46,180 bases of DNA from Lysobacterales bacterium (GTDB lineage: Bacteria > Pseudomonadota > Gammaproteobacteria > Xanthomonadales > SZUA-5). Position 1 is the first letter of the stretch. Each line of letters opens with the position of its first letter. The notes beneath the pieces were generated by a model, which had not been told where the DNA came from, did not search any database, and saw nothing but the letters and a program-made list of their open reading frames with translations. The position numbers and the translations under genes were made by a program. The stretch lies in NCBI GenBank assembly GCA_020442775.1, contig JAGRJL010000025.1:1-46180 (forward strand), written 5' to 3'. Of the stretch, positions 6,501-42,895 are shown one piece after another.

Positions 6501-6561
6501 TGTTCGAATCCTCGCGGCGCCGATGCCAGCAGATGCGCAATGCTGGGTTAGGCGACGGAGT

Positions 6562-21640: not shown

Positions 21641-22066
21641 TCAGTCCTTGCGCAGGCTGTCGCGGATCTCGGTGAGCAGCTTCACTTCGGCAGAGGGCTC
21701 CGGCGGCGCGGCCGGCGCGGCCTCTTCCTTGCGCTTCATGCTGTTGATCGCCTTGACCACCATGAAGATGGCGAAAGCGACGATCAGGAAATCAAAGGCG
21801 GCCTGTACGAACAAGCCGTACTGCAGCAGGACCGCCGGCGCGCTTTCGCTGCCGTCAGCAGCCACCTCCGCTGCCTTGAGTACGATTGCCTGATCGGAAA
21901 AATCAACGCCGCCCACCAGCAGCCCCAACAGCGGCATCACGATCCCCGACACCAGCGAGGAGACGATCTTGCCGAAGGCCGCGCCGATCACCACACCCAC
22001 GGCAAGGTCGACCACATTGCCGCGCATCGCGAATTCCTTGAACTCCCCCATCATGCCCATGCTCAT
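21641..22066 (-). CDS. mscL: Large-conductance mechanosensitive channel
   Basis: [43 protein letters not shown]...[25 protein letters not shown] is near-identical in pattern to E. coli MscL. Start is one of the ATGs at 22066/22060/22054. The 148-aa N-terminal extension of track ORF 21641..22510 is not coding. Confidence 0.95.
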
Positions 22067-22235
22067 TCCCCAATGGCCAATGCCGATCCGTCTGGTCGGT
22101 GCGCTGGAGGTTAGCAGAGCCGGTCGTTGATCTGACGTGCATGGGGTCGCGCGATGTGGCGTGCGGGTCACGAATTGCCGGGTGCGCGTCGAAAATGGGG
22201 TAAGGTCACCCCGGGGGCAGGCAAAAGGGGTGGCG

Positions 22236-22706
22236 ATGGCAGAGGGAATCCTGGGGTGGCGCGAGTGGGTCAGCTTGCCCGCATTGGGGGTGTCAGCGGT
22301 CAAGGCCAAGGTGGATACCGGGGCTCGCTCCTCGGCGCTGCATGTGTTGTGGCAGGAGCGCTTTGAGGCTGCCGGGCAGCCCTGGGTGAGGTTCGAAGTG
22401 GAGTCGATGGGTGCCGGAACCGAGCGGATTCGCTGCGAAGCTCCGGTAGAGGACGAACGTCCGGTCACCGATTCGGGCGGGCACACCATCCTCAGGCCGT
22501 TTATACGCACCGAATTGCTGGTCGGAGAGCGCCGCTATCCGATCGAGCTGAACCTGGTCGAGCGCCACCGAATGCGCTTTGCGATGTTGCTGGGGCGAAC
22601 CGCGCTGGAGGGCAATTTTCTGGTCGATCCCGGACGCTCCTATGTGTCCGGCAGAACTCACGCGCCGCCCAGAAAGGCGCGCAAGCGGCTGGCGACCGGC
22701 TCCTGA
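22236..22706 (+). CDS. Retropepsin-like aspartic protease (RimK-associated 'ATP-dependent zinc protease' family, DUF785/COG4067)
   Basis: [30 protein letters not shown] (D-T-G active-site motif) ...RPVTDSGGH...RPFI...[22 protein letters not shown]. No rimK gene is adjacent. Confidence 0.75.
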
Positions 22707-27338: not shown

Positions 27339-30300
27339 CTATCCCGGCTGGTCGCTGCTGCGCTGCCAGTTGGCCAGACCGCCGCCGATGATTTGCTCGA
27401 CGCCATGACCAACCCCCGCGGAGAAGTCGCTGTGACGAGCATGCGACGCCGGGAGCAGGCGGTTCCAGCCGTCGCGGCCATGGGTCTTGACCCAGTAGAG
27501 CGCAACGTCGGCCAACTCCATGGCCATGGCCCAATCGGCGATATCGCTGCGGTCCGCCATCGCCGGATAAGGGCAAACCCCCATCGACACGCTCATCGCC
27601 ACGCGCTCGACTTCATTGGCCCGAAAGTCGGCCCGGCGCACCGCCTTGACCACTCTTTCGGCAAAGCGCTCTGGTGAGCCGACCGCCGATTCCGGAACCA
27701 GCAGCAGGAACTCCTCGCCGCCCCAGCGAAAGGCGTGCCCCTGGTCTCCCGCCAGCCGCAGCATCAGTTGCGAGAACTGCTTGAGGATGTCGTCGCCGAC
27801 CAGATGGCCGAGGCGGTCATTGATCGCCTTGAAATGGTCCAGATCCATCAGGAAAAGCCACAGGCGCTCCTGGTCGGTTTCGCCGAGCAGACTTCGGCGC
27901 CGCCAGTCGGCGAGGAACTTGGCCAGAAAGCGACGATTCTTCAGGCCGGTGAGGCCATCGGTGAAACTTTCCTGGGCCAGGGCCTGGTTGGCATTGCGCA
28001 ATCGCTCATTGGCCCGGCGCAGTTCCTCGGTGCGCTGGTCAACAACCCGTTGCAGGCGCTGCTCCCGACTCAGGCTGCGGATCCGCAGCAGGTAGGTCAA
28101 TCCAGCCAGGCTCGCCAGCGCCAGCACTCCTGCCAGCAGCCTGAACCACAGGGTCTCGCTGGGCCAGGCGGGGACCACAATACGGGTTGGACTGGCCTTG
28201 ACGAAGCGGTCGGTGGCGCCACCCTGGGCCGACAGCTCGAACTGATAATGCCCCGGCGCCAGATTGGTGTAGCGAACGCTGCGCTGATCAGTCAGTGATT
28301 GCCAGTCGCTTTCATAGCCGACCATGCGGTAGCGGAAACGGACCGATTCGGGGTCGCGAAAAGCCAACGCCGTGTACTCGATGGTAATGTCGCGCAGCCC
28401 CCGGGGCAGCTCCATAGACGCACTACCCGGCCACTGTTGGCCGCCCTCGGCGATGATTCGCTCGACCATGACGCGATCGGGTTGTTGCGGCGCCTCCACG
28501 TCTTCGGGGTCGACCCGCACCAGTCCATTGAGGCTGGGAAACCAGAGCTTCCCGCGCCAGTAAAGTCCGCGACTGGTGGCGCCCGCATTGCAGCAGCGCA
28601 GGCGCTGGCCGCCGCGGGCGTTGCGACCCTCATTGAGTACCGGTTCCGGACTCACCCGCCCACCGTTGAGCAGGAAGTTCTCGATCTGGGCGACGCTGAG
28701 CCTGTAGACCCCGCGAGGGCTGCTGACCCACAGGTAGCTGCTGTCGGCCTGCAGGTTGGCCACCGAGTTCCAGGGCAGTCCCTGCGCCCCGCCCAGGGTG
28801 CTGTAGCCGGTCAGGTCGCGAATGTAGATGCCGTCGTTGAAGGTGCCAATGACCAGCTTGCCACCGGCCATCGGCAGCAGTGCGGTGACCAGGGCGGCAT
28901 CCAGCCCAGAGCCGGTGCGGATGTGCTTGAACTGACCTTCGAGGCCGGCGTACAGGCCTTGTTCGGTGCCCACGTAGAGCTGTTCCTCGAACTGCACCAG
29001 ACTGCGCACCGCGGCGACTGACAGACCCTCGTTGCTCCCGTAGCGCTTGAATAGCCCGTTGCTCTGCAGATAGAGCCCGTCGCTGGTGCCGATCCAGTAG
29101 GTGCTCGGGTTGATCTCCAGGACCGCATTGATCTGCAGTCCGCTCAGCGGGCTCCACAAGGCCGGCTCGTCCAGCGTTGTCCCGTTCCACCGCGCCATAC
29201 CTGCTCGGGTGCCGATCCAGGCGCCGCCGGTGCTGGGGAAAAACAGGTTGTAAACGGCGCTGTTGCGCAGTGATTGCGTTGAAATCACCTCCACGGCCTG
29301 ATCTTGCGCATCCAGCTGCCAGACGCCGGTCGCGGTCCCCAGCCAGACCCGCTGATCGGGTCCGCGTGCCACGCTCCACACGAAGGGATCGCTCAGGCCA
29401 CGCTGCGGACCAATCCGCGCGGCCCAGCCATTCCACCAGCGTGACAGGCCGGTGGTGTAGCTGCCGATCCACAGGTCGCCCTGAGGGTCTTCGAAAATGC
29501 TTGCAATCCAGGCGCGCACGCTGTCGTGTTCGGTCAGCGCCCATTCCAGGCCGCGCTCAGCGTTGTAGCGCATCAGCCCGTCAATCAGGCCGATCCACAG
29601 ATTGCCGTCACGATCAGCGTGGAGCGCCTCGATGGATGCCTCCGCCAGCGGTGCAGCCCAGGCTGGTTGGCGCAATTTGCCATCGACGAATTCGAACAAG
29701 CCGCGGGAGCTGCCGACATACATCCGGCCTGCGCGGGAGGCGAGGTGGGTGAATCGCAATTGGCCCAAGTTACGATCTGCCGGAACCGCCGCAGCCATCC
29801 CCCCGCTGACTTCGTAGACTGCGCCATCGCTGCCGGCATAGATCCGGCTGCCGACGCTGAGCAGCGCATAGACCTTTGAATCTGCCAGGCCCAGGCGGGT
29901 CGCGTGACCCTTGCTGTAGCCGAACACCCCGCGGTCGGTGCCGATCAGTACGCTGCCGCCCGGTGCCATGGCAAATCCGTGGACTTGACCAACATTGGCG
30001 CCCAGCCCTTCAACCGGGTGCAGGCCCGCCTGGTCCAAAAGAGCGGCGCCGTGCGGTGTACCCAGCCAGAGGTCGCCCTGATCGTCGCGCCATACCCGAT
30101 CGGTGATCGAAGGCTGGTAGCCGTTCAGATCAGACGCGCCGTAGCTGGTGAAGCGGAGTCCGTCGAAGCGTGCCAGGCCGCCCTGGGTACTCATCCACAG
30201 ATATCCCATCCGGTCATGGGCGATGGAGGTCACCGAGACCTGCGGCAGACCATCGGGAAAGCCCCAATGGTCGATCACGTATTCATCCGGGGCGCGCTGG

Positions 30301-30497
30301 AGGTCGAGTGCCCAGCAGTGACTGGCCCAGGCCGTCAGCGCTAGCGCGAGCGGCCGCACCCAGCGGGCGAGGGAGGTCCGCGAGGTCAAACGGGACTTCA
30401 ACACGGTATTGCCCAAAACATATAGCCTTCGGTCCGGCGTGAAGAATGATCCTGTGCGCTGTTTTGCCTTGGCACCACGACTTCGCCCCACGCGCAT
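27339..30497 (-). CDS. Periplasmic propeller / Y_Y_Y sensor diguanylate cyclase, paralogue of 9305..12220
   Basis: Same architecture as 9305..12220: signal peptide (LALALTAWASHCWA), propeller repeats, Y_Y_Y (IEYTALAFRDPESVRFRYRMVGYESDW...GHYQFELSA), TM helix, coiled coil, GGDEF (FRWGGEEFLLLV). First ATG is 30497. GTG 30404 would give a more typical signal-peptide length, and the track start 30545 is TTG. Confidence 0.88.
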   Translation of the reverse strand: MRVGRSRGAKAKQRTGSFFTPDRRLYVLGNTVLKSRLTSRTSLARWVRPLALALTAWASHCWALDLQRAPDEYVIDHWGFPDGLPQVSVTSIAHDRMGYLWMSTQGGLARFDGLRFTSYGASDLNGYQPSITDRVWRDDQGDLWLGTPHGAALLDQAGLHPVEGLGANVGQVHGFAMAPGGSVLIGTDRGVFGYSKGHATRLGLADSKVYALLSVGSRIYAGSDGAVYEVSGGMAAAVPADRNLGQLRFTHLASRAGRMYVGSSRGLFEFVDGKLRQPAWAAPLAEASIEALHADRDGNLWIGLIDGLMRYNAERGLEWALTEHDSVRAWIASIFEDPQGDLWIGSYTTGLSRWWNGWAARIGPQRGLSDPFVWSVARGPDQRVWLGTATGVWQLDAQDQAVEVISTQSLRNSAVYNLFFPSTGGAWIGTRAGMARWNGTTLDEPALWSPLSGLQINAVLEINPSTYWIGTSDGLYLQSNGLFKRYGSNEGLSVAAVRSLVQFEEQLYVGTEQGLYAGLEGQFKHIRTGSGLDAALVTALLPMAGGKLVIGTFNDGIYIRDLTGYSTLGGAQGLPWNSVANLQADSSYLWVSSPRGVYRLSVAQIENFLLNGGRVSPEPVLNEGRNARGGQRLRCCNAGATSRGLYWRGKLWFPSLNGLVRVDPEDVEAPQQPDRVMVERIIAEGGQQWPGSASMELPRGLRDITIEYTALAFRDPESVRFRYRMVGYESDWQSLTDQRSVRYTNLAPGHYQFELSAQGGATDRFVKASPTRIVVPAWPSETLWFRLLAGVLALASLAGLTYLLRIRSLSREQRLQRVVDQRTEELRRANERLRNANQALAQESFTDGLTGLKNRRFLAKFLADWRRRSLLGETDQERLWLFLMDLDHFKAINDRLGHLVGDDILKQFSQLMLRLAGDQGHAFRWGGEEFLLLVPESAVGSPERFAERVVKAVRRADFRANEVERVAMSVSMGVCPYPAMADRSDIADWAMAMELADVALYWVKTHGRDGWNRLLPASHARHSDFSAGVGHGVEQIIGGGLANWQRSSDQPG

Positions 30498-30580
30498 GGG
30501 AGATTCGCAGGCCTTGCATGGTATCGTCGCGCCCCCATCACACAAGCGTTGCTGATCACCGCAGCGCCTGGAACAGATCC

Positions 30581-31265: not shown

Positions 31266-33032
31266 ATGGGTTTTGAGGCCTATCTGGTACTGGCCGTTGT
31301 CATTGCGGCGGTCATTGCCTTCATCAGCGAACGATTTCCAGTGGAGGGCGTGGCGCTGGCGTCCCTGCTGGCGTTGCTGGTTGGCGGGGTGCTCACGGTC
31401 GATCAGGGCTTCAAGGGCTTCGCCAATGAGGCAGTCATTACGGTGGCAGCGATGTTCGTGCTGTCTGCCGGACTCCAGCGCAGCGGAGCGCTCAATACCC
31501 TCGCGCGCTGGCTGGTGATCTATGGAACATCGCCGGCCAGACTGCTGTTGCTGGTGGTTCTGGCGGGCGGACTGTCCAGCGGCATTGTCAACAATACTGC
31601 GATTGTCGCGGTCTTCATTCCCTTGGTGCTGGCCGCTGCCCAGAGCAACAAGCTATCGCCCTCCAAGCTGCTGATCCCGCTGTCCTACGCCAGCCAGTTG
31701 GGTGGGGTGTGCACCCTGTTGGGCACCTCCACCAACCTGCTGGTGGCCTCGATTGCGATCGGCGCGGGCGTGGGTCAGATGGGCGTGTTCGCACCCACCC
31801 CCTACGGTCTGATCGTGTTTGCGGTGGGCGGGCTGTACCTGATGTTGATCAGTCCCTGGCTGCTGCCGGCCACCCGCGTGACCGAACTGACCGAGACCTA
31901 CAGTCTGGGCGACTACATCAGCGAGCTGCGGGTGGACGCCGGCAGTCCGCTGGTCGGACGGCGCATCCGGGTCCAGGAGTGGGAGAGCGAAAGCGGAATT
32001 ACCGTGCTCGAAGTCATCCGTGACAAGGGCAAGCTGTTCTCGCCGCTGGACGTGACCGTGCGCCCCGACGACGTCTTGCTGGTCAAGGGCAAGGTCGAGA
32101 GCCTGATGGGCTTCCGGGATCGCTACAAGCTGATGATTGCGCCCGACTTCTCGCTCAGCGATGAAGAGCTGGTGGGCAACAACATCGTCCTGGTCGAGGC
32201 CCTGGTCGCACCCAGTTCGCGCTTTGCCGGCGAGACCCTGGCCTCGCTGGACTTTTATCGCCACTACAACACCCTGGTGCTGGCGATCCAGCGTCGCGGG
32301 CAGGTGCTGCGCGACAAGCTCAAGGAAGTCACCCTGACCTTCGGTGACTCGCTGCTGCTGCTCGCTCGCCAGGAGGACCTTCCACAGCTGCGTCGCAGCC
32401 AGGACCTGATCATGCTCGAACGCGGTGAGCGCATGCGCACGCCGAAGCGCGCCCGAATGGCGCTGATCATCATGACTCTGGTGGTGGGGCTTGCTGCGTT
32501 CAAGGTGCTGCCGATCATCGTGACCGCGCTGTTGGGGGTGATGGCGATGCTGCTGGCGCGCTGCCTGACCATTGACGAGGCTTATCTGGCGGTGGAGTGG
32601 CGGGTAATCCTGCTGCTGGCCTGCATGATTCCGCTGGGTACCGCGATGCAGGACACCGGTCTGGCGCGCTGGGTTTCGGACAACGTGATCGGCGTGGTCT
32701 CGCCGCTGGGCGCAGTCGCCACCCTGAGTGCGGTGTATCTGCTCACCGCGATCCTGACCGAGCTGATGTCGAACAACGCGGCCGCGGTGCTGATGGCGCC
32801 GATTGCGATCACCAGCGCGCGCACCATGGACGCCGACCCGCTGCCCTTCCTGCTGGCGGTTATGTTCGCCGCCTCCACCGCCTTCTCGACCCCGCTGGGC
32901 TACCAGACCAACACCATGGTCTACAACACCGGCGGCTATCGCTTCCGCGACTTTCTGCAGGTCGGTCTGCCGCTGAACTTCCTGCTCTGGATCATGGCGA
33001 CCATTGTGATCCCGCTGATCTGGCCGCTGTAG
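31266..33032 (+). CDS. SLC13/DASS-family permease with two central TrkA-C (RCK_C) domains (588 aa)
   Basis: N- and C-terminal multi-TM halves (…VTVAAMFVLSAGLQRSGAL… / …LTELMSNNAAAVLMAPIAI…). These flank a soluble insert with two TrkA-C-like repeats (GSPLVGRRIRV...GITVLEVIRD; SRFAGETLASLDF...NTLVLAIQRRG). Confidence 0.88.
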   Translation: MGFEAYLVLAVVIAAVIAFISERFPVEGVALASLLALLVGGVLTVDQGFKGFANEAVITVAAMFVLSAGLQRSGALNTLARWLVIYGTSPARLLLLVVLAGGLSSGIVNNTAIVAVFIPLVLAAAQSNKLSPSKLLIPLSYASQLGGVCTLLGTSTNLLVASIAIGAGVGQMGVFAPTPYGLIVFAVGGLYLMLISPWLLPATRVTELTETYSLGDYISELRVDAGSPLVGRRIRVQEWESESGITVLEVIRDKGKLFSPLDVTVRPDDVLLVKGKVESLMGFRDRYKLMIAPDFSLSDEELVGNNIVLVEALVAPSSRFAGETLASLDFYRHYNTLVLAIQRRGQVLRDKLKEVTLTFGDSLLLLARQEDLPQLRRSQDLIMLERGERMRTPKRARMALIIMTLVVGLAAFKVLPIIVTALLGVMAMLLARCLTIDEAYLAVEWRVILLLACMIPLGTAMQDTGLARWVSDNVIGVVSPLGAVATLSAVYLLTAILTELMSNNAAAVLMAPIAITSARTMDADPLPFLLAVMFAASTAFSTPLGYQTNTMVYNTGGYRFRDFLQVGLPLNFLLWIMATIVIPLIWPL

Positions 33033-33083: not shown

Positions 33084-33815
33084 CTATTCCAGGCCCAGCG
33101 CGACGAATCGGTATGGCGGATAGGGCGCGCTCAGTTCCAGCACCAGATCCGCCTCTGCGCCGTCCGGGAGGGTTTCAGCCTGAGCGCGGAGTCGGTCAAT
33201 CTGTGCGCGTGAAACCAGTAGTGCGAGCTTGGCCCAGCAGCGCTCGTCGTCAAAGACTGCGGTCGCGAAATCCAGACAAAGATCACTCAATCTGTCGATC
33301 AGCTGCTGCTGGCAGCGCCTGCGCTCGGCGTGCAGGACTCGCTGCAGGGTCTGGCCGAGGTGGATTCGTTCAGACGCGGTGGGCGTCCTCCCGGCCGCGA
33401 GGTACTGACGGCAGAGCTCTCTGAGCTCGCTGCAGTTTTCAAAAAAGTGGCTGTACAGGTTCTCACCACGCCAGCTTAGCCTGACCGTGAACTCCACTCT
33501 ATCGGCTATCGCATCCAGCCGTGCGCACAGCCGATTGCGCAAGGGCAGCAGCTCCTTGCGCAGCGTCTCTTCGTCCGGAGCCACCATTCCAAATGACATG
33601 GGCAGAACGTCCGCGGATGCGGTCAGCTGCTGCAGCAGCGCCTGGAAGTCCGCCAGGTTGGTCTGGCCCGGGAGCACATGGGCGATGCTGCAGTCGCTTA
33701 CGATCACCCGAAAATCGGCGACTTCCACAGCACGAACCGGATTGCCGAATAGTCCGGTCAGTGAGGGCGAATCGTCGAGCCCTCTGCGGTTGATGCCATA
33801 CAGAATCAACGCCAT
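33084..33815 (-). CDS. GvpL/GvpF-family gas-vesicle-associated protein (243 aa)
   Basis: Family hallmarks in the expected order: N-terminal MALILYGI, VLPMSFGMV (LP.RFG block), RVEFTVRLSW (EV.VK..W block), C-terminal LSAPYPPYRFV. The in-frame upstream region has a stop and no alternative start, so ATG 33815 is the start. Confidence 0.8.
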   Translation of the reverse strand: MALILYGINRRGLDDSPSLTGLFGNPVRAVEVADFRVIVSDCSIAHVLPGQTNLADFQALLQQLTASADVLPMSFGMVAPDEETLRKELLPLRNRLCARLDAIADRVEFTVRLSWRGENLYSHFFENCSELRELCRQYLAAGRTPTASERIHLGQTLQRVLHAERRRCQQQLIDRLSDLCLDFATAVFDDERCWAKLALLVSRAQIDRLRAQAETLPDGAEADLVLELSAPYPPYRFVALGLE

Positions 33816-34001
33816 CGGACGTCGCTGCCGCGGGCGGTCTGCGCCGCTGCGAAGTCGATCTTTCTTTCGACCAGAAACCTGATCGACTCGGCGACGCCGG
33901 CCGGGCGTTTAACACGATCCCCGCAGTTCTTCGAAGCGATACCGTCAGACCGTCCGGAGCCGGCGCAGTACAGTGCTGGATGAGCGACCGAAGCCACCGA
34001 A

Positions 34002-34190
34002 CTATTCGCGATCAGCCGCCGCTGCGGCGAGCAGGATGAATTCCGCGTACTGCTGGAAGCTTTCTCGGGTGGCGCCGGAAACTTGTGCCTCGACCTGGAC
34101 CAGCTCAATGCTGTCCAGCGAAATCTCCGCGAAGGCGTCGATGACCACGCCATGGTCCAGCGAGTAGCTGACGATTTCCTTCAGTCTCAT
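34002..34190 (-). CDS. GvpA/GvpJ/GvpM-family gas-vesicle shell-type protein (62 aa)
   Basis: LKEIVSYSLDHGVVIDAFAEISLDSIELVQVEAQVSGATRESFQQYAE aligns without gaps to the canonical GvpA core [48 protein letters not shown]. Identities include L.E, LD.G.VIDA, SL..IEL, EA and YAE. Confidence 0.8.
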   Translation of the reverse strand: MRLKEIVSYSLDHGVVIDAFAEISLDSIELVQVEAQVSGATRESFQQYAEFILLAAAAADRE

Positions 34191-34225
34191 CGGCGGCGCC
34201 TGTGCTCGCTGTCAGGTGGCCAGTC

Positions 34226-34264
34226 AGAAATAATCCAACACACTGTACAATATACTTACACAAG
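34226..34264. promoter_or_regulatory. AT-rich patch in the divergent gvpA-like / response-regulator intergenic region (promoter-like)
   Basis: agaaataatccaacacactgtacaatatacttacacaag stands out against the GC-rich surroundings. It lies 36-74 nt upstream of the gvpA-like ATG (34190). I cannot assign hexamers confidently. Confidence 0.3.
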
Positions 34265-34403
34265 TCAGGCTGGCCGAGCCGACGGCATGATCTTCAATGC
34301 AGGTCGACAGCGGCAGCGGGAACGCCCACAATCGCGGCTTGGTCGATTGCGGCGGGCATGAACCAAGGGGTTCGTTCACGCTGGCAACCATCGAATACCT
34401 ACT

Positions 34404-34411
34404 GGGGGGGG
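34404..34411. repeat. G8 homopolymer tract in the same intergenic region
   Basis: actGGGGGGGGtatg. This is the longest homopolymer run I found in non-coding DNA of the window. Confidence 0.9.
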
Positions 34412-34548
34412 TATGAGGGAATTCGCAGGGGTGATGACAACTTCAGCCAATCGGTGGCAATTCCGACCCGAGGCTGAAAGCTTGGACTTCCGAAAGGCAA
34501 TCGGTCGCTGTCCCGCTGCCAGCCGGTCTGGAACGATCTGGTGATCCG

Positions 34549-35328
34549 ATGGCTTCGTTCGAAACGATCGTGCCCCATGGGCACACGAACGTGATGACAA
34601 ACGATGGCTTGCTGAATACCGAGCAGGCGCAGATCAAAGTGATCTTCGTCGATGACGATCGTGCGCTGGTCGGACTGGCTGCCGAGTTCTGCAAGTCGCA
34701 CGGGATTGATGTGATCTGGGCCGGAGACGCTGCGGTGCTGGAAGAACTCCTGGCTGCGCGTACGGTGGATCTGATTCTGCTCGACGTGGGACTACCGGGG
34801 GAAGACGGCTTCAGTATCTGTCGCCGACTGCGGGTGACGCGACCTGGTCTGCCGATCATCGTCGTGTCCGGGCGCACCGACGACATGGACCGGATCCTGG
34901 GTCTGGAATTGGGCGCCGACGATTACATCACCAAGCCTTTCGTACCCAGAGAGCTGGTTGCACGAATTCGCTCGCTCCATCGGCGCAGCCAGCTGCACAC
35001 CATGGCGCCAGCGCAGGCGGCAACTGAGTGCGTGCCATTCGGGCAGTTTGAACTTGATCTGGGGCGGCGTGAGCTGCGTCGCCAGGGCGAACCACAGCCG
35101 CTCACCAATGCTGAGTATGATCTGCTGGCAGTCCTTTGCCAGAATCCGGGCCAGGCGCTGAGCCGCGCCGAGATTCTCAATCTGATCGAAGACGGCGGCG
35201 AATCCACCGCGTCTGAACGCGGGATCGACGTCACCATCGTCAAATTGCGCAAGCTGATCGAGGACGAACCCAAATCACCCAAGTACATCAAGACCGTTTG
35301 GGGGATTGGCTACATCTTCACCCCGTGA
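34549..35328 (+). CDS. OmpR/PhoB-family response regulator
   Basis: Receiver IKVIFVDDDRAL...LILLDVGLPGEDGFSIC...IIVVSGR...GADDYITKPF, plus winged helix (LTNAEYDLLAVLCQNPGQALSRAEIL...IDVTIVKLRKLIE...IKTVWGIGYIF). ATG 34549 is preceded by GGTGAT; ATG 34594 is an alternative start. Confidence 0.9.
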   Translation: MASFETIVPHGHTNVMTNDGLLNTEQAQIKVIFVDDDRALVGLAAEFCKSHGIDVIWAGDAAVLEELLAARTVDLILLDVGLPGEDGFSICRRLRVTRPGLPIIVVSGRTDDMDRILGLELGADDYITKPFVPRELVARIRSLHRRSQLHTMAPAQAATECVPFGQFELDLGRRELRRQGEPQPLTNAEYDLLAVLCQNPGQALSRAEILNLIEDGGESTASERGIDVTIVKLRKLIEDEPKSPKYIKTVWGIGYIFTP

Positions 35329-35951
35329 AGGCGCAGGCGCCCGCCACCTACAGTAGCGCCGAGCTGCTGCGCAGCCTTGGCCACGACGTCCGTGGGCATC
35401 TGGCCAGGCTGCATCTGCGGCTGAGTCTGTTCAAACTGCCGCAGGCCACCCTGCAGGAAGCGCTGGACGAGCTGGCCAACATCGATATTTGCGTGCGCAG
35501 CCACCTCGATCTGGTGCGCGAGGCCCCGCAGCGGGAACCCACAGCTCTGCCCATCCGGGATCTGGCGCAGCAGCTTCTGGCCGAGCTTCCGGATGGGGAT
35601 CGGGTGGTCCTGGATCCGTCCCTGAAACTGGAAGTACGGAGCTGGCCAGAGCTGTTGCAAGGCGTGTTGCGGGCGATTGTTTGCAATGCCCTGACCCACG
35701 GCAAGCCACCGGTTAGCCTGCATGCGGAACAGTGCGTAGACAGCTGGCGCCTGAGCGTGGTTGATCACGGTAATGGTTTCGTTCGCCCCAGGGCCGATGA
35801 GCAAAGTGCGAGATCACCACTGGCCAGCGGGGTTGGGCTGCTTGCTGCTGACCATCTGGCGAGACTGTTGGGCGGAACGATTGAGGTCCGTTGCGAGGTC
35901 GGGATTTGCACGGTCAGCTTGCATTGTCCGAACCAGCCCAAGCCCGTTTGA
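35325..35951 (+). CDS. Minimal soluble histidine kinase (DHp + CA only, 208 aa), translationally coupled to the regulator
   Basis: GTG 35325 overlaps the regulator stop (GTGA). H-box LLRSLGHDVRGHL, N-box IVCNALTHG, G1 VVDHGNGF, G2 ASGVGLLAADHLARLLGG. The H-box begins about 17 residues from the start, so there is no TM segment and no sensor domain. Confidence 0.75.
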   Translation: MKAQAPATYSSAELLRSLGHDVRGHLARLHLRLSLFKLPQATLQEALDELANIDICVRSHLDLVREAPQREPTALPIRDLAQQLLAELPDGDRVVLDPSLKLEVRSWPELLQGVLRAIVCNALTHGKPPVSLHAEQCVDSWRLSVVDHGNGFVRPRADEQSARSPLASGVGLLAADHLARLLGGTIEVRCEVGICTVSLHCPNQPKPV

Positions 35952-36000: not shown

Positions 36001-36046
36001 CAGCTTGGGTTGATCAAGCGCCGTGCGCCAGCCACGCGGGCTACAC

Positions 36047-37825
36047 ATGCAGTTCGGTTCGCCAGAATGCTTCGTTTCCGCCTCATCGGTAGCAAACATT
36101 GCTGCAGACGGGAAGCAGTCTGGTGGGAACCCCCGGCCAGCCCAGGAAGCCTTCGGGTCGCATCGATTTCTGGACCAGATCCCGGCAGCGGCGGTTCTGA
36201 TTGATCAGCGGGGGCGGATCGTCGCCAGCAATCGATCACTGAACGATTACCTCGATTACAGCCCCGGCGAGCTCTACGCAGCCCCGCTGTCGATACTGGG
36301 CCCCGATGCCGCGCGCTTGCTCGGCAGTATCAAAGAGATTGATGGTGGTCAGTCCCCTCGGCTGGTACGACTGCAGTCCCGGCGCGGTGAAATGCGCGCC
36401 TGTCTGGCCAATGCCTGCTGGTGGAGCGGTGATCCCGAGGGTGCGCGGCTAATGTGCGCGCTGGATTGCCGCGATCAGGTCGCCAGCGAGCAGATTCTCG
36501 GCAGGATCGCCTATATCGACGGCCTCACCGGGCTTCCCAATCGCGCGGCATTCCTTCGTCAGCTGCAATCGCGCTGTGAAGCCATATCGGCTGGCGAGGG
36601 CGCATTCGCGGTGGCCCGCGTGGACCTGGACCGCTTTCGTCTGGTCAACGATACGCACGGTCATCACACCGGCGATGGCTTGCTGGAGCGGATCGCGAAG
36701 CAGTTGCGCGAAAGCGTCAACGCTGAAGCGTTCGTTGCCCGGATGGGCGGCGATGAGTTCGCTCTGCTGATGGATGACCGAGGCTCAGAGCGCGAGTTGC
36801 GTGACCGTCTGGAGCGGCTGTCGCAGGCGTTGACCGGCCCCTTCGATCTGGAACAGCGGCGAATCTATCTGACTGCCAGCGTCGGACTGGTTCGAGTGAG
36901 CGACAACGAGCGGAGCGCTCAAGAGATCCTGAACAACGCCGAGTCTGCATTGTTCAGGGCCAAGGACGAGGGGCGCAACCGGGTCACCGTGTTTGCTCCG
37001 GCCCTGCAGGAACAGGCGCGCTCCCGGCTGATCGTCTTCAGCGCTCTCCAGCGTGCGTTGCGCGACAGCGAACTGGAGATCCATCTGCAGCCGATAGTGG
37101 AAGGGCGCAGCCAGGCACTGGTGACGATGGAGGCGCTGGTGCGCTGGCCCGACTGCTATGAGGGTGCCTGTCAGCCGTCGCAGTTCATCCCCATTTCCGA
37201 AGAGCTGGGGATCGCGCCGGAGCTTGATCGTCTGGTGATCGAGGAATCCGCGCGCTGGCTCGCCTACCTTCGCGAGGCACATCCGGCCTTGCGCGGCGTG
37301 CCGATCAACATCAACGTGTCGGCGGTAACCCTGCGCAATGAGGCCATTGTTGATCTGCTGGCCGCAGCCAGACAGCAATATGGATTGGAGCCAGAGGCGC
37401 TGCGGGTGGAGATCACCGAGACCGCACTGCTTTCAGACTCCGAGCATGTCCAGAACGTCTTGTGCAATCTGGCAAGGAGCGGAACCCCGCTGGTGCTCGA
37501 TGACTTTGGCACCGGTTACTCGTCCTTGCGCCACGTCTATGACCTGCCGATCTGTGCGCTGAAGATCGACAAATATTTCGTGCACAGGGCCCTGCGTGAT
37601 CCGCGCAGTCTGGCGCTGGTCAGCACCATCCTCTCGCTGGCCAGGGCCTTGGGCATCTCCACCACCGCGGAGGGGATTGAAACCGAGCGGCAGCGCTCGA
37701 CGCTGGTGCGACTGGGTTGCGAGAACCTGCAGGGATATCTGTTTGCCAAGCCGATGCCACCGGCTGAGCTGCCTGCATGGGTGGAGCGGATGGCGGCGAC
37801 CTTGGATGCGACCGGCGATGGATAA
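36047..37825 (+). CDS. Cytoplasmic PAS-GGDEF-EAL protein (592 aa)
   Basis: PAS-like N-terminus (FLDQIPAAAVLIDQRGRIVASNRSLNDYL), GGDEF (DGLTGLPNRAAF...RVDLDRFRLVNDTHGH...ARMGGDEFALL), EAL (LQPIV...MEALVRW...ISEELG...INISA...EITE...LDDFGTGYSSL...LKIDK...EGIE...QGYLFAKP). Both catalytic motifs look intact. Confidence 0.9.
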   Translation: MQFGSPECFVSASSVANIAADGKQSGGNPRPAQEAFGSHRFLDQIPAAAVLIDQRGRIVASNRSLNDYLDYSPGELYAAPLSILGPDAARLLGSIKEIDGGQSPRLVRLQSRRGEMRACLANACWWSGDPEGARLMCALDCRDQVASEQILGRIAYIDGLTGLPNRAAFLRQLQSRCEAISAGEGAFAVARVDLDRFRLVNDTHGHHTGDGLLERIAKQLRESVNAEAFVARMGGDEFALLMDDRGSERELRDRLERLSQALTGPFDLEQRRIYLTASVGLVRVSDNERSAQEILNNAESALFRAKDEGRNRVTVFAPALQEQARSRLIVFSALQRALRDSELEIHLQPIVEGRSQALVTMEALVRWPDCYEGACQPSQFIPISEELGIAPELDRLVIEESARWLAYLREAHPALRGVPININVSAVTLRNEAIVDLLAAARQQYGLEPEALRVEITETALLSDSEHVQNVLCNLARSGTPLVLDDFGTGYSSLRHVYDLPICALKIDKYFVHRALRDPRSLALVSTILSLARALGISTTAEGIETERQRSTLVRLGCENLQGYLFAKPMPPAELPAWVERMAATLDATGDG

Positions 37826-38273
37826 TCCTCCCCCGGGCGCCAACCGCACATCGATCGACTCGACGCCGGACGGTGGCCGGTCCTGGTCCAGCAGCCTGAG
37901 CCTTGGAGAGCTGGCGCAGTTGGCGAAGATCGAACGGCTGGAGCAGGCCAACGCCAGACTGGAGCGCGAGTTGCGCCAGCTTCGATCAGCGCTGGCGACC
38001 GCTGAAAGCGAAGTTGGCAGCCTGCGGCGTTCCCAGGCAGCAGTGGATTCGGTGCTTGAGCAGGAGCGCGCATTCAGAATGGATCTGCAGGAGGAGTTGG
38101 CGGAATCTCGCGCGGCACTCGCCAGGCAGCAGAGTGACCCGCTGCGCGCGGATCAGTGGGAAAATCCCGCAACGCTGATCAGAGCGGAGCTGGCGCCAGC
38201 CAATCAGGCGGAGTCTGCCGATTCGGGAAGCCTGTCGACCGGTTCGCAGGGTGTCAGACGACATGGTGGTTGA
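37818..38273 (+). CDS. Hypothetical coiled-coil protein (151 aa)
   Basis: ATG 37818 overlaps the upstream stop (ATGGATAA, 8-nt overlap). The central segment LAQLAKIERLEQANARLERELRQLRSALATAESEVGSLRR...LQEELAESRAALARQQ has heptad character, and both ends look disordered. Confidence 0.55.
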   Translation: MDNPPPGANRTSIDSTPDGGRSWSSSLSLGELAQLAKIERLEQANARLERELRQLRSALATAESEVGSLRRSQAAVDSVLEQERAFRMDLQEELAESRAALARQQSDPLRADQWENPATLIRAELAPANQAESADSGSLSTGSQGVRRHGG

Positions 38274-38318: not shown

Positions 38319-41300
38319 ATGAACGGGGAAATGTCCGCCGATATCCACCCGATACCGGCGGCAAGGGTTGAGCGCGTCAGTCTGCTGGAATCCGAAGATG
38401 CGCTGATCGTGGTGGACACCCATAGCCGCATCCATGCGATCAGCGACGGGCTGTGCCAACGGCTGGGGCTCACCGTCGCCACCTTTCAGGGCAAGTCCCT
38501 GGACCAGATCGAGCGCCAGTGGCGCAAGGTCGCGATACTCAGCCGGATCGATTCCGGCAGTGAATCGGTGCAGGGCGGTTTCCTCTGGCCCAGCGAGCTT
38601 TCGGCGTTTCGCGTATTGCCCCGCATTGATGTACTGCTGCAGGGCAGCACGCCGGGCTTGCCGCAGACCCTGACTTGCGATCACGCAGGGCAGATCAAGG
38701 GCGCATCCGCGAGCCTGCTCAGCCGACCGGGCGGGGGGCTGCTGCTGGGCAGGCTGAAGATCTTCGACCTGCTGCCGTCGGCGACAAAGAAGTTAGGGAA
38801 CCTGATTCGGGATAGTGCCCAGCGTCAGGGAGTGCCCAGCACGATGGGTCTGCAAGTGCCAAACATGGGCTTGTTCAGGCTGCTGTCGCTGGCATATGAC
38901 GAATGGGTGGAGCTGAGCTTCCTTCGGCCGCAGTCCGATGTGCTCTCGCTGAGCGAACTGGTCCGCCATCCAGTGTTCTCTCGCACCATCGACATGATGG
39001 AGGACGCCGTCTCGGTACACGATCTGGACGGTGCCACGGTGGAGATCAACCAGGCTGGCTTCGCGCTACTCGATGCCGAACCCTCTGCGGCGGGTGTGCC
39101 GCAGCTGGTCGAAGCGATCCATCCCGAGGATCGTTCGGTGTTCGCAGGCGCGCTGGCAGCGGGATTGCGCGGTGCGACCACGCGCGCCACATTGCGCCTG
39201 CTGGTAGGCGTGGATGATCGAGAAGCTCGCGTGCGAATTCTGGTCCGGCCGATCAGGCGGGAAGACGGAGAACTCGATCGTTTGCTGATTCAGACCCGCA
39301 CCTCCGCCTTTCCAGCGCCTCCCGCGACCGGCACGGCGGCGCGCGTTGGGGTGCCGCTGGAGCAGCCGGCGTCGCTGACCGACCCGAATGAGACCGGGGC
39401 CAGGGTGGATGCTGCAGCAACCAGCGCGGGGGTTGCCAGGCTGGTTCCCCGCCCATCCCCGCCGGCGGGCGCACAGGGCTACGCGTGGTCCTGCGAGCTG
39501 GAAGATGCGCGGCTGGTCAAGCTGCAACTGCGTGGCGAGGGTTTCGAACAGCTGCATGGCTTTCCTTTTTGCGAACTGGTTCTGGCCGGCGGGGAGCGAA
39601 TCGCGATGCCGCATGGCGAAGCGGAGAGAGTGCGCTCGGTGATCCTCGAGGCGGCGCGCCGCGGCGGGGGCTTCGAGCTGGAGTTCTCCCGCTACGACGG
39701 CCACAGCGCGCTGCGCTGGACCCTGGTGCGCGGCACCGTGTATCGCGATCGAGAGGGCCGCTCCCTGGTGGAGGCGGTCACAATGGATTTGGAGCCTCGC
39801 CGCCTGGCACAAGTGGCGAATGATCAGCACCACCGGTTCCTGCTCGACCTGCTCGAGCTGGTCCCTGATGCCGGAGGCTGCCAGCTGCGCTATGACTGGC
39901 AGGCCAGGGTGGAAATCCTGTACGCCAACGATCGCCTGCGCGAGCTTTGTCCCAGCCTGCGCTCGTCGGGAGGAAGTGCGGCGGAGCTGTTGTTTCCCAA
40001 TCTCGAGGCGCCCACCGTAGCCGCAATCGATCAGCGGCTCCGCCAATCTGCTGAGACCGGCGAACTGGTTGATCTGGAGTTCAACATGGGAGCGGGCGAA
40101 GGCGCCCGCTGGTTCAGCCTGCGCGCCTGCCGAGCGGATGCCGCGAACGGGCTGGGCGTGGTTTGCCTGCTTATGGAGATCACCCGGCAGCGGCGCGCAG
40201 TACAGACTTTGCTGGAGCGGGAACAGCTGCTGCAGCGCATCGGTAACAACATGCCCAACGGTTTCGTTTTTCAAATGATCCAGCAGGCCGACAAGAGCGC
40301 GCATCTAAGCTATGTCTCCGCCGGTTTTGAGCGTTTGACCGGCATCAGCAGACGGGATGTGGCCATCAATCTGGCGCCCCTGTTGCAGCTGATGTCTGCC
40401 ACCGATGCGATGAATTTCGAAGCACGCATGAGCGAGTCGGCGCGGCGAATGGTGCTGCTGGAGTGCGAATTCGGTTTGAACAGCGAGCGACGGGAGGCCT
40501 TCAGGCACCTGATGCTCAGCGCCCGGCCACGACCCTTCGACGGCGGTGCCACGCTGTGGGAGGGCGTCGCCACAGACATCACCCAGCGACACAACACTGG
40601 AGAGGAGAAGCGTCGACTGATACTGCGCCTGGAGCACCAGATCACCGAGCTGGAGAGCGTCAACTTTGCACTCTCGCATGATCTCAAGGGTGCGGTTCTG
40701 GGGCTTCGCGGCCAGCTTGATCTCGCGTTGGATCTGTCAGAGATGGGGGAACATGAAGGTGTCCATGAGCGGCTGAACCGCAGCATCGGGGTCACAGAGC
40801 GGATGTGGCAACTGCTCGCTCAGATGCTGGAGTTGTCCCGACTGGAGCGGGCAGAGCTGGTCGTGCGCCGCTTGACGATGCTCGAGCTGGTGCAGCCGAC
40901 GTTGGACCTGCTGAGCGGCCTGTCGGAAAAGTCGGGGGTCAGAGTCGAGCTTGAGACCCCCGAGCTGGAGCTGGATTGTGACGTACTGCGGCTGCAGTCG
41001 GTGTTGGTCAATCTGATTGGAAACGCGCTGAAATTCTCGCCGCCGGGTAGCGAGTCGGTGCTGATTCGCGGTACCGAGGGCATTGGCGAGGTGCTGATAT
41101 CGATTACCGATCACGGAATCGGCATCGCTCCCCAACATCTGGAAAAGGTCTTCGGGCTATTCGAGCGTGTCGATCAGGCTGTGGAAGGATCAGGGGTTGG
41201 CCTGGCGCTGGTCCGTCGGGTGATCCAGATGCACGGCGGCAGGGTATGGGCGACCTCGCCCGGCGTGGGTCAGGGTACGACCATCTGGCTGTCGCTGCCG

Positions 41301-41339
41301 AGAATGTCAGTGGAAACCGGGATGTTGCGCAGTGGCTGA
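38319..41339 (+). CDS. Cytoplasmic multi-PAS sensor histidine kinase (1006 aa)
   Basis: No TM segments. Several PAS-like repeats (e.g. MMEDAVSVHDLDGATVEINQAGFALL; ...VFQMIQQADKSAHLSYVSAGFERLTGISRRDV), H-box FALSHDLKGAVLGL, N-box NLIGNALKFSPPG, ITDHGIGIAPQHLEKVFGLFER, GSGVGLALVRRVIQMHGGRVW. Confidence 0.9.
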   Translation: MNGEMSADIHPIPAARVERVSLLESEDALIVVDTHSRIHAISDGLCQRLGLTVATFQGKSLDQIERQWRKVAILSRIDSGSESVQGGFLWPSELSAFRVLPRIDVLLQGSTPGLPQTLTCDHAGQIKGASASLLSRPGGGLLLGRLKIFDLLPSATKKLGNLIRDSAQRQGVPSTMGLQVPNMGLFRLLSLAYDEWVELSFLRPQSDVLSLSELVRHPVFSRTIDMMEDAVSVHDLDGATVEINQAGFALLDAEPSAAGVPQLVEAIHPEDRSVFAGALAAGLRGATTRATLRLLVGVDDREARVRILVRPIRREDGELDRLLIQTRTSAFPAPPATGTAARVGVPLEQPASLTDPNETGARVDAAATSAGVARLVPRPSPPAGAQGYAWSCELEDARLVKLQLRGEGFEQLHGFPFCELVLAGGERIAMPHGEAERVRSVILEAARRGGGFELEFSRYDGHSALRWTLVRGTVYRDREGRSLVEAVTMDLEPRRLAQVANDQHHRFLLDLLELVPDAGGCQLRYDWQARVEILYANDRLRELCPSLRSSGGSAAELLFPNLEAPTVAAIDQRLRQSAETGELVDLEFNMGAGEGARWFSLRACRADAANGLGVVCLLMEITRQRRAVQTLLEREQLLQRIGNNMPNGFVFQMIQQADKSAHLSYVSAGFERLTGISRRDVAINLAPLLQLMSATDAMNFEARMSESARRMVLLECEFGLNSERREAFRHLMLSARPRPFDGGATLWEGVATDITQRHNTGEEKRRLILRLEHQITELESVNFALSHDLKGAVLGLRGQLDLALDLSEMGEHEGVHERLNRSIGVTERMWQLLAQMLELSRLERAELVVRRLTMLELVQPTLDLLSGLSEKSGVRVELETPELELDCDVLRLQSVLVNLIGNALKFSPPGSESVLIRGTEGIGEVLISITDHGIGIAPQHLEKVFGLFERVDQAVEGSGVGLALVRRVIQMHGGRVWATSPGVGQGTTIWLSLPRMSVETGMLRSG

Positions 41340-41436
41340 ATTCAACCGTTGTCCTCGCTGCGCGAGCAGCCTTCGGGGACAGTGTTGCCCAATCGAAGTA
41401 CCATAATCCCCTCGGGGTAGATGCTGGAGCAGAAGA

Positions 41437-41880
41437 ATGCAGGCACGGCCCAAACTGGCAGCCTCCATCCTGGCGATTGAGGATGACCCCAACCAGCTCG
41501 AGCTACTCGAGTTGGCAATCGGAGCATTGCCTGTGGAGGTTCCGGTCACCTGTGCTGACAACGGTATGGAGGCCCTGCATCTGATTCAGATGGCGGCGAT
41601 GGAGCGCTTCGAGGGGCAAGTGGCGATGGTGCTGCTGGACCTACGTTTGCCGCGAATGCACGGGATGGATGTGCTCACCCGGGCCAATGAGCTGGGGCTC
41701 ACCGGCAAGGCGCCGTTCATCGTGTTCACATCATCGGACTCCAGTGCCGAGCGTGATCAGGCGCTGGCACTGGGAGCGCGCGACTATCTGGTCAAACCCC
41801 TGGGTTTCAAGCCGCTCAGGCTGCTGATCTCCAGCCTCTATGAGCGCTGGATCGCCTCCAATCCGGCGTTGTCCGGCTAG
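41437..41880 (+). CDS. Single-domain CheY-like response regulator (147 aa)
   Basis: ILAIEDDPNQLE...MVLLDLRLPRMHGMDVL...FIVFTSS...GARDYLVKPL, with no output domain. Confidence 0.88.
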   Translation: MQARPKLAASILAIEDDPNQLELLELAIGALPVEVPVTCADNGMEALHLIQMAAMERFEGQVAMVLLDLRLPRMHGMDVLTRANELGLTGKAPFIVFTSSDSSAERDQALALGARDYLVKPLGFKPLRLLISSLYERWIASNPALSG

Positions 41881-42326
41881 CCGGCACCGCCTGCTTCCAG
41901 GGCGAAGGCACTCCGCACGCTGGCATTGAGCCGTTCACCAATGGCATCGGCACATTCGTGCAGATTCCAAAGCAGCTTGCCCAGCGTGGTGTCGCTGCCG
42001 CTGATCGCGGTCAGCAGCAGTCGCTGGCGGCGATTGGGGATATCCATCACCAGAATGTTTCCCTGGCCCGCCTCGATCACGATGTTCTTGCAGGTGTTGA
42101 CCCGAGTTTCCGCACACAAGGCTTCGGCCAGCGCCAGCTGCGAACTGGCCATCGCCGAGAGCTTGCTGGCGCTGATGGTCGGCGGCAGCTGGGCGGCGAT
42201 GTCAAAGCCGTCGATGGTGGAGACCAGTGCGCCTTCGATCTCCGGAGTGTTTTCGATCAACACCGCCAACTGCTTCAGGCACATCATGCGCTCGGTGTTG
42301 CCGAAGGGGTCGACCTCTTGATTCAT
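41877..42326 (-). CDS. Roadblock/LC7 (MglB-like) domain protein (149 aa)
   Basis: LKQLAVLIENTPEIEGALVSTIDGFDIAAQL......LSAMASSQLALAEAL......NIVIEAGQGNILVMDI...LLLTAISGSDTTLGKLLWNL follows the Roadblock/LC7 pattern. The ATG overlaps the GTPase stop (ATGA at 42323-42326). Confidence 0.8.
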   Translation of the reverse strand: MNQEVDPFGNTERMMCLKQLAVLIENTPEIEGALVSTIDGFDIAAQLPPTISASKLSAMASSQLALAEALCAETRVNTCKNIVIEAGQGNILVMDIPNRRQRLLLTAISGSDTTLGKLLWNLHECADAIGERLNASVRSAFALEAGGAG

Positions 42327-42895
42327 CGGGCGATCTCCATCTGGGTGGGCGAGCGCTCCATCTGGATGTCCTGTTCAATCTGGTGAAAGAGCACGTCCAG
42401 CAGCAGCAGTACGTCGTCGCGGCGACGCACGTCGACCGAGAACATGGGGACCTGCAGGCCCATCGAGTCGGCGATCTCGTGGAACTCATGCAATCCTGGC
42501 TGTGGGTGGGTCTCGGTGTGGCCAACCCCGATCACCGCTCGATAGCCGCGGACCACATCCGAGAATGCATTCAGATAGTGGCGCACGTCGGCAATCGGGT
42601 CCGGCCGAGAGTTGTCGATCAGGATCACCACGCCGAGCGCCCCGGCGCCGAGGATCTTCCACATGAAGTCGAAGCGTTCCTGTCCTGGTGTTCCGTACAG
42701 GCGCAGCTTGTCGCCGTTGCCGAGGGTGACTTCGCCATAATCCATGGCGGCGGTCGTGGTTGCCTTGGCGTGGGTTTGCGTATCGTTATTCTGAACTTCG
42801 GTGGAAACCGGTGGAATCTCGCTGATCGCGGCGATGGCGGTTGTCTTGCCCGCGCCCATCGTCCCCGCAAAGATCAACTTGTGTTCAGAAGCCAC
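42323..42895 (-). CDS. Small Ras-like GTPase of the CvnD/MglA-related 'ATP/GTP-binding protein' group (COG2229), 190 aa
   Basis: GTG start at 42895. P-loop FAGTMGAGKTT, switch region TTTAAMDYGEVTL, LYGTPGQERF (G3), VVILIDNS. The NKxD position reads GVGHTE, as I recall for this subgroup. It abuts the upstream gene with no intergenic nucleotide. Confidence 0.85.
   Translation of the reverse strand: MASEHKLIFAGTMGAGKTTAIAAISEIPPVSTEVQNNDTQTHAKATTTAAMDYGEVTLGNGDKLRLYGTPGQERFDFMWKILGAGALGVVILIDNSRPDPIADVRHYLNAFSDVVRGYRAVIGVGHTETHPQPGLHEFHEIADSMGLQVPMFSVDVRRRDDVLLLLDVLFHQIEQDIQMERSPTQMEIAR

Follow-up and report, generated by a model that had tools for sequence, protein, structure and literature searches.

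The assembly of gas vesicles is poorly understood, and the roles of their accessory proteins are debated. Here we describe a two-gene locus, gvpA'-gvpF', in a 46,180-nucleotide contig of a Xanthomonadales metagenome-assembled genome (MAG; GCA_020442775.1, contig JAGRJL010000025.1; this whole stretch is referred to as the window), which encodes one protein derived from the shell-forming GvpA and one member of the GvpF/L family. Comparative synteny shows the pair to be the reduced descendant of a gas-vesicle cluster of ~12 genes at the same locus. Both genes are kept under purifying selection, and their products are probably partners in a function other than the building of gas vesicles. We found no published account of a gvpA/gvpF remnant of two genes that selection maintains.

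Results

The gvpA'-gvpF' pair and its family membership

Both genes of the pair lie on the minus strand. The first, gvpA' (34002..34190), encodes a divergent GvpA-derived protein of 62 amino acids (aa); the second, gvpF' (33084..33815), encodes a full-length GvpF/L-family protein of 243 aa, and a spacer of 186 nt (33816..34001 on the same strand) separates them. NCBI names assigned to the Xanthomonadales MAG already designate both as gas-vesicle proteins, namely "gas vesicle protein" (MCB1605625.1) for GvpA' and "GvpL/GvpF family gas vesicle protein" (MCB1605624.1) for GvpF'. A first-pass annotation of the window, made from its letters alone, had described two intact open reading frames (ORFs) on one strand with a 186-nt spacer, assigned to these two families on the strength of the GvpA pattern LD.G.VIDA...SL..IEL...EA...YAE and the GvpF motifs LILYGI, LPMSFG, EFTVRLSW and SAPYPPYRF. 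The ORFs, the spacer and every one of these motifs were found as described, and the family assignments are borne out by profile and structure comparisons.

For GvpF' the evidence is ample: the protein scores 152.4 bits against the Pfam family GvpL_GvpF (PF06386; cut-off 23.6), covering profile positions 2-244 of 245, and its sequence also matches both GvpF crystal structures. An AlphaFold2 (AF2) model of good quality (predicted local distance difference test score, pLDDT, 86.1; predicted template modelling score, pTM, 0.76) was aligned by Foldseek over ~240 columns with 6l5d_B (E 1e-15, template modelling score, TM, 0.78) and 4qsg (E 2e-15, TM 0.73). As modelled, GvpF' is structurally intact and has the two-domain fold of GvpF.

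The match of GvpA' to the Pfam family Gas_vesicle (PF00741) is borderline: at 27.7 bits (E 3e-6) it just clears the cut-off of 25, covering positions 10-36 of a 39-position profile, and the orthologue of GvpA' in the relative L011, introduced below, has no Pfam hit on record. Using phmmer, GvpA' aligned without gaps to GvpA of Anabaena (8gbs, residues 3-59 on 12-68, E 4e-8) and of Bacillus megaterium (7r1c, residues 3-54 on 12-63, E 3.5e-7), and the collinear coil-helix-strand-strand-helix core of solved GvpA can be aligned in its sequence. Both proteins are true members of their Pfam families. The same program matched GvpA' to GvpA and not to GvpJ or GvpS; judged by these matches GvpA' derives from GvpA itself, with which its position as the first gene, described in the next section, agrees.

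Origin from a larger gas-vesicle cluster

An exhaustive HMMER search of 1.8 billion cluster representatives returned very few close relatives of GvpF'. The best matches outside its own group were P0006-P0009, with 40, 38, 37 and 34% identity, and in their genomic context (loci L017, L018, L029 and L031-33) each gvpF is gene 6 of one conserved cluster. The first six genes of this cluster are gvpA (72 aa), a gvpC-like gene, gvpN (AAA_5), a gene of ~98 aa, another of ~90-128 aa, and gvpF, followed by gvpG, gvpS, gvpK, gvpJ, a gene of ~160 aa and one for a CDC48-like double AAA ATPase. More distant alphaproteobacterial clusters from Bradyrhizobium and Methyloferula (L034 and L035) have an identical order.

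Three genes on the plus strand to the right of gvpA' tie the window to this cluster. Transcribed divergently from gvpA' is a gene for an OmpR-type response regulator (34549..35328; Response_reg and Trans_reg_C in Pfam), followed by one for a small cytoplasmic histidine kinase of 208 aa, here termed the mini-kinase (35325..35951), which has only a HATPase_c domain in Pfam and no sensor domain. The mini-kinase ORF overlaps the stop codon of the regulator gene and has an alternative start, TTG, at 35298. The third gene (36023..37825) encodes a protein with GGDEF and EAL domains (Pfam) and belongs to the ancestral flank of the gvp locus. The window regulator shares 54-55% identity (E ~1e-80) with its counterpart at the full L017 cluster and 45% with the one at the L018 cluster. 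For the mini-kinase the corresponding values are 30% (E 5e-15) and 29% (E 2e-11), and the GGDEF-EAL protein is 48% identical (E 7e-138) to its counterpart at the L017 regulators and gvp cluster. Regulator, mini-kinase and GGDEF-EAL genes are arranged in L017 as they are in the window, and L018 also has a regulator and a mini-kinase.

Since orthologues of all three genes flank the full cluster of L017, the window represents the orthologous locus of that cluster. Order and orientation are common to both: the regulators, then the divergent gvpA, then gvpF. In comparison with L017, the window has lost the four genes between gvpA and gvpF and everything downstream of gvpF, as well as a second gvpF/L gene and a heme-oxygenase gene, both located around the regulators in L017; it retains genes 1 and 6 only, in their ancestral order and orientation. 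By comparative synteny, gvpA'-gvpF' is shown to be a reduced descendant of a gas-vesicle cluster of ~12 genes at this locus. The first-pass annotation had placed the pair plausibly under the control of the divergent OmpR regulator and its kinase. Their association is real and, going by the orthologous regulators that flank the full clusters of L017 and L018, the OmpR regulator and the mini-kinase are ancestral neighbours of the gvp cluster.

The full clusters of the relatives have features of their own. The heme-oxygenase gene, lost in the window lineage, lies between the OmpR regulator and gvpA in L017 (6529-7266) and L018 (2208-2819), and in L031/L032 (2558-7303) genes for a bacteriophytochrome kinase (PAS_2-GAF-PHY-HisKA), a LuxR-type regulator and a heme oxygenase are found directly upstream of gvpA; such light-sensing genes beside the full clusters suggest light-controlled buoyancy in these relatives. 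The alphaproteobacterial L034 (11167-11787) and L035 (11020-11634) encode a fused protein of 204-206 aa with a GvpA-family domain and GvpK, which resembles the Anabaena GvpK with a GvpA-like domain noted in the literature.

Search for further gas-vesicle genes

According to the first-pass annotation, no other gvp gene occurs in the 46 kb, and four types of search (Pfam, tblastn, phmmer and custom profiles) agree with this. Among the ~40 longest ORFs covering the window, Pfam detected no gvp family besides the pair; the remaining content comprised transporters, a Val-tRNA synthetase, many two-component and GGDEF/EAL proteins, and a Roadblock protein with a small GTPase. When 50 proteins from four full clusters were compared with the window by tblastn, only gvpA', gvpF', the regulator and the mini-kinase were matched, plus a weak GvpG match (37932-38078, E 0.002). 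The latter falls inside a coiled-coil ORF in which neither Pfam nor a GvpG profile detected anything, and is taken to be compositional. A phmmer search with GvpA, GvpJ and GvpS against all window ORFs of at least 40 aa gave a single GvpA-family ORF. Nine custom profile hidden Markov models (HMMs), built for GvpC, GvpN, GvpG, GvpK, GvpJ, GvpS, the two small proteins and the ~160-aa protein, were applied to all six-frame segments of at least 25 aa in the window and the orthologous locus; apart from gvpA' they gave nothing below E 0.03, and recognisable relics of gvp genes are thus absent as well.

In the relative, 20.7 kb of the 41.8-kb L011 contig around the orthologous pair likewise contained no gvp gene besides gvpA' and gvpF'. 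Of the conserved core that marks a functional gas-vesicle cluster (gvpA, gvpF, gvpG, gvpK, gvpL and gvpN with two GvpA paralogues; PMC9501494), the 46-kb window and these 20.7 kb contain gvpA' and gvpF' alone.

The spacer at 33816-34001 stands where full clusters carry gvpC, gvpN and two small genes. Neither tblastn nor the custom profile HMMs detected a relic of any gvp gene in it. Its RNA fold is no better than that of shuffled sequence (z = 0.19), and no RNA element, hidden ORF or promoter-like site was found inside. A single terminator-like hit (33824-33807) overlaps the gvpF' start and is no commoner than chance.

Conservation and selection in a second lineage

In keeping with the first-pass annotation, which had treated the two genes as one module, the pair recurs as a unit in a relative, with the same synteny: a gammaproteobacterial MAG, GCA_030430155.1, represented by loci L011 and L013. 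A locus scan of a genome collection, based on an alignment of four sequences, retrieved only four loci (L013-L016); the window's own genome is not part of that collection. In both lineages GvpA' has 62 aa and GvpF' 243 aa, and the alignments are gapless. Identity between the window and L011 at the protein level is 93% for the transporter to the left (CitMHS family), 92% for an Fe-S assembly protein, 72% for the OmpR regulator, 66% for the GGDEF-EAL protein, 54.8% for GvpA' and 53.1% for GvpF', while the spacer between the two gvp genes (186 nt in the window, 167 nt in L011) is not alignable.

Nei-Gojobori estimates of non-synonymous (dN) and synonymous (dS) divergence gave dN 0.30, dS 1.0 and dN/dS ~0.30 for GvpA', and dN 0.42, dS 2.1 and dN/dS ~0.20 for GvpF', ratios that are rough at saturated dS (1.0 to >2). 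Non-synonymous change is significantly rarer than synonymous change in both genes (Fisher's exact test with approximate site counts, p = 1e-4 for GvpA' and 1e-19 for GvpF'). Because the ORFs are intact at this divergence while every other gvp gene has vanished untraced, we regard neutral decay as excluded. The pattern of substitutions shows purifying selection that maintains both genes as functional. Strain polymorphisms at ten further loci (L001-L010), where all gvpF' differences are synonymous, were not used, as these contigs had been retrieved by exact GvpF' identity and are biased by construction.

Divergence of GvpA' from shell-forming GvpA

Between four full clusters the canonical GvpA proteins share 89-97% identity, and the GvpF proteins only 39-43%. 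The GvpA' orthologues, by contrast, share only 55% identity in two fairly close relatives whose neighbouring transporter is 93% identical. Against the canonical GvpA of related full clusters GvpA' has 39-47% identity (45-47% for the window protein), and in phmmer comparisons with gammaproteobacterial GvpA it scores 43 bits, whereas haloarchaeal GvpA proteins reach ~80 bits. It matches the GvpA-specific NCBIfam models (PRK09371 / halo_gas_GvpA) but falls far below their cut-offs, with 47.6 of 100, 38.9 of 112 and 32 of 151 bits. This level of divergence shows GvpA' to have been released from the extreme constraint that acts on shell GvpA.

For the elements that have changed, published structural work has assigned roles in the shell. 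In what follows, residues are numbered as in B. megaterium GvpA2, residue i of GvpA' corresponding to chain residue i+9. GvpA' is without the 12-residue N-terminus, the polar arm, and begins at the equivalent of residue 10; its reading frame is closed by a TGA 24 nt before the ATG, with no start codon between the two, which rules out a longer form. According to Huber et al. 2023, residues of the GvpA N-terminus (I3, S6, T7 and S9) make rib-to-rib contacts (PMC9994262). The same structure has V35 and I37 sealing the seam, and aliphatic residues lining the gas-facing side (PMC9994262). At this hairpin tip the window protein has D, and the L011 protein E, in place of V35; G36 has given way to S or H, and position 37 is still I or V. 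Further changes include R31 to E or Q, R45 to Q and K22 to H, and at the end of strand 2 VVIASV has become VSGATR or ATTTTP in the GvpA' orthologues. The grand average of hydropathy (GRAVY) of the hairpin is 0.66 in the window and 0.33 in L011, compared to 1.61-1.84 in four canonical GvpA proteins, and the net charge is more negative.

Set against what distinguishes a shell GvpA, the protein lacks scores above the NCBIfam cut-offs, the N-terminal arm, a hydrophobic hairpin tip and extreme conservation. With the N-terminal arm absent, the hairpin tip acidic, the end of strand 2 polar and the hairpin far less hydrophobic, GvpA' would not be expected to form a gas-tight wall. In helix 2 the YAE motif has been kept, and so has the face of strand 1 presumed to be luminal. 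The best-kept part is the N-terminal one: of residues 1-21 of GvpA', which span helix 1 and reach into strand 1, 18 (86%) are identical in the two orthologues, compared with 16 of the other 41 (39%).

Intergenic regions and neighbouring genes

The region between gvpA' and the regulator gene (34191-34548) measures 358 nt and, as the first-pass annotation had noted, contains an AT-rich patch (~34225-34265) and a G8 run (34404-34411). Upstream of gvpA', at 34248..34263 on the minus strand, lies the 16-mer TTGTGTAAGTATATTG, which occurs once in the window where 0.07 matches would be expected by chance. This 16-mer (TTGTGTAAKTATRTTG) precedes the gvpA' start codon by 57 nt in the window and by 56 nt in L011 (9573-9588), and the intergenic DNA around it is otherwise poorly conserved between the two. 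This makes it a candidate promoter or a candidate operator of the OmpR regulator. A 55-aa ORF upstream of gvpA' (34224-34391, minus strand), called by some pipelines, has no Pfam match and no called counterpart in L011 and is probably spurious.

The wider neighbourhood is as first described, with a transporter on the left and two-component and cyclic di-GMP (c-di-GMP) genes on the right, according to Pfam. The left neighbour of gvpF' is a CitMHS/Na_sulph_symp/TrkA_C permease (31266-33032), and to the right, beyond the GGDEF-EAL gene, a PAS kinase and a receiver protein are encoded. Between the GGDEF-EAL gene and the PAS kinase lies the 152-aa coiled-coil ORF mentioned above (37815-38273, plus strand), which shares only 36% identity with its L011 orthologue; no other gene of the block evolves as fast. 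Further along, the plus strand encodes a large histidine kinase with multiple PAS domains and a single-domain receiver (38319-41880), and beside these the minus strand encodes a Roadblock/LC7 protein, a GPN/MglA-like small GTPase and a protein of 346 aa for which Pfam has no match (41877-43936); this arrangement recurs in L011.

Genes of c-di-GMP metabolism are unusually dense in the 46 kb (9305-13631 and 27339-30545 on the minus strand, 36023-37825 on the plus strand); the set comprises two large Reg_prop/Y_Y_Y-GGDEF proteins, one GGDEF and one GGDEF-EAL protein, and there are in addition four two-component pairs. At 2045-6575 (minus strand) two large adjoining ORFs encode a protein of 664 aa ending in Peptidase_S74, the intramolecular chaperone of endosialidase and tail-fibre proteins, and one of 818 aa with a Calx-beta domain; these may be secreted or surface proteins. 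The longest ORF with an MscL domain (21641-22510, minus strand) has 289 aa, with the domain confined to residues 153-286, and its true start is probably much further downstream.

Discussion

We consider it probable that gvpA'-gvpF' is a reduced gas-vesicle cluster in which a selected pair of proteins, likely working together, no longer builds gas vesicles. Its working unit would most likely be a GvpA'-GvpF' complex. In Halobacterium salinarum, GvpF is the sole Gvp protein that binds GvpA, and helix 1 of GvpA alone suffices for binding; in B. megaterium GvpA2 and GvpF interact strongly when no other Gvp protein is present, and GvpG displaces GvpF (PMC9501494, PMC10903477, PMC11445434). The contact between GvpF and helix 1 of GvpA is the only one among Gvp proteins known to form without other Gvp proteins (PMC9501494, PMC10903477, PMC11445434). 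Because GvpF binds GvpA in this way, the two surviving genes can be seen as one self-forming binary module.

In the lineage common to the window and GCA_030430155.1, deletion has removed all gvp genes apart from gene 1 (gvpA) and gene 6 (gvpF), as comparative synteny shows. For the remaining pair the following is proposed. Its promoter would still be under the control of the ancestral OmpR regulator and mini-kinase, and GvpF' would bind and solubilise the small amphipathic GvpA' as a heterocomplex. The GvpA'-GvpF' pair would then serve a residual or new role other than buoyancy. The first-pass annotation had entertained, as one of two options, a minimal and so far undescribed GvpA-fold module. 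An independent origin of such a module has to be given up in favour of reduction from a ~12-gene cluster; that the fold is used with a single GvpF partner agrees with the purifying selection on both genes and may be correct.

Several observations weigh against this interpretation. A simple scan for sigma-70 promoters found no consensus on the gvp strand, and both gvpA' and gvpF' have weak ribosome-binding sites. The AF2 model of GvpA', built from an alignment of three sequences, reached a pLDDT of 51, too poor to confirm the fold, and was discarded. The dN/dS ratios carry the roughness noted above. With V15, I17, A19, A21, I23 and L25, the luminal face of strand 1 is still hydrophobic, and some capacity for self-assembly may remain. 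The reduction was probably a single event, and only two lineages (n = 2) carry the pair. Finally, the searches for gvp genes cover the 46-kb window and 20.7 kb of the L011 contig, which leaves room for the satellite explanation considered below.

A more specific version of a new role is that the pair has been co-opted as a new two-protein system, which we hold possible but put forward tentatively. Under co-option GvpF' would load the amphipathic and now acidic GvpA' into a gas-free assembly, for example a filament, a sheet or a coat at an interface; a different possibility is that the complex acts as an adaptor within the adjacent signalling block of OmpR regulator, mini-kinase and c-di-GMP proteins.

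The other option of the first-pass annotation was a satellite pair, in which a complete gvp cluster exists elsewhere in the genome and GvpA' and GvpF' are accessory paralogues, for instance a minor wall component like GvpJ or GvpS with its own GvpF. Gas-vesicle clusters normally hold several GvpA- and GvpF/L-family paralogues (PMC9501494), L017 has a second GvpF/L, and purifying selection on the pair fits any function. In L017, however, the cluster at the orthologous regulators occupies this very locus, and a second cluster has to be assumed; none of its genes was seen in the 46-kb window or the 20.7 kb of the L011 contig. GvpA' descends, on the comparisons above, from GvpA itself rather than from GvpJ or GvpS, and neither the N-terminal arm nor the hydrophobic tip of the hairpin has been retained. 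Since the main cluster formerly stood at this locus and shell-specific features have been lost from GvpA', we regard the satellite explanation as unlikely.

It is distinctly improbable that GvpA' and GvpF' alone are a minimal, self-sufficient shell system that builds a gas-filled or hollow GvpA-type nanostructure. In all known clusters gvpA, C, F, G, K, L and N and two GvpA paralogues are conserved, and in H. salinarum GvpF, G, J, K, L, M and O are essential and GvpN is needed for bicone enlargement (PMC9501494). In GvpA' the rib-linking N-terminus is missing, the seam-sealing V35 is charged and hairpin hydropathy has dropped from 1.8 to 0.3-0.7. In favour of such a shell stand a retained helix-strand-strand-helix layout with a hydrophobic strand 1 face, selection on the pair, and the standing of GvpF as the primary chaperone of GvpA (PMC11445434).

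That the two ORFs are a non-functional relic, left by decay of the cluster and still uninactivated, is very hard to credit: 53-55% identity between the lineages beside 92-93% for the transporter and the Fe-S assembly protein, a GvpA' barely above the Pfam threshold with an L011 orthologue lacking a recorded hit, and weak ribosome-binding sites would suit it, but at ~1-2 synonymous changes per site the ORFs are gapless, stop-free and equal in length next to a spacer that differs in length and cannot be aligned, dN/dS is 0.2-0.3 with Fisher p <=1e-4, the other gvp genes have vanished untraced and neutral DNA therefore does not persist at the locus, and GvpA' shows patterned conservation, 86% up to residue 21 and 39% beyond it.

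If the reduced pair has indeed gained a role other than buoyancy, the known uses of the GvpA fold would be widened, and if co-option is true this would be the first documented use of that fold outside gas vesicles. The stripping of a ~12-gene cluster down to a selected GvpA and GvpF also provides independent comparative support for GvpF as the primary, self-sufficient partner of GvpA through helix 1, and the locus offers a naturally simplified pair for the study of a chaperoned, unassembled GvpA-type protein. The general importance is modest, as the case is confined to two related uncultured lineages.

Among known systems, Streptomyces coelicolor (gvpOAFG-JLSK) is similar in that gvp genes are kept where buoyancy is no obvious need, possibly for other roles. 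Clusters of that type differ in having ~8 genes, including gvpG, J, L, S and K (PMC9501494), whereas the window locus has only two. The client-chaperone pair of GvpA and GvpF in H. salinarum and B. megaterium belongs to the same two protein families; there GvpF binds GvpA through helix 1, and in GvpA' helix 1 and strand 1 are the best conserved stretch. In those organisms the complex is transient: GvpG displaces GvpF, and GvpA is then inserted into the growing vesicle. The window locus, in contrast, has no GvpG, GvpN or nucleation set, and its putative complex would be without a known downstream acceptor.

The closest known system is the proteobacterial cluster architecture that resembles that of Serratia sp. 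ATCC 39006 (gvpA1-C-N-V-F1-G-W-A2-K-X-A3-Y, plus gvpH-Z-F2-F3 and regulators). In relatives of the window locus this type is complete (L017, L018, L029, L033, L034 and L035), in an order that is close to that of Serratia. In comparison, at least 10 genes are absent here, among them gvpC, gvpN, the two small genes, gvpG, gvpS, gvpK and gvpJ, and also the ~160-aa gene, the CDC48-like ATPase and the second gvpF/L. What the window shares with the Serratia type is its framework: gvpA' and gvpF' correspond to the first gene and the first gvpF in both order and orientation, and two-component regulators adjoin the cluster.

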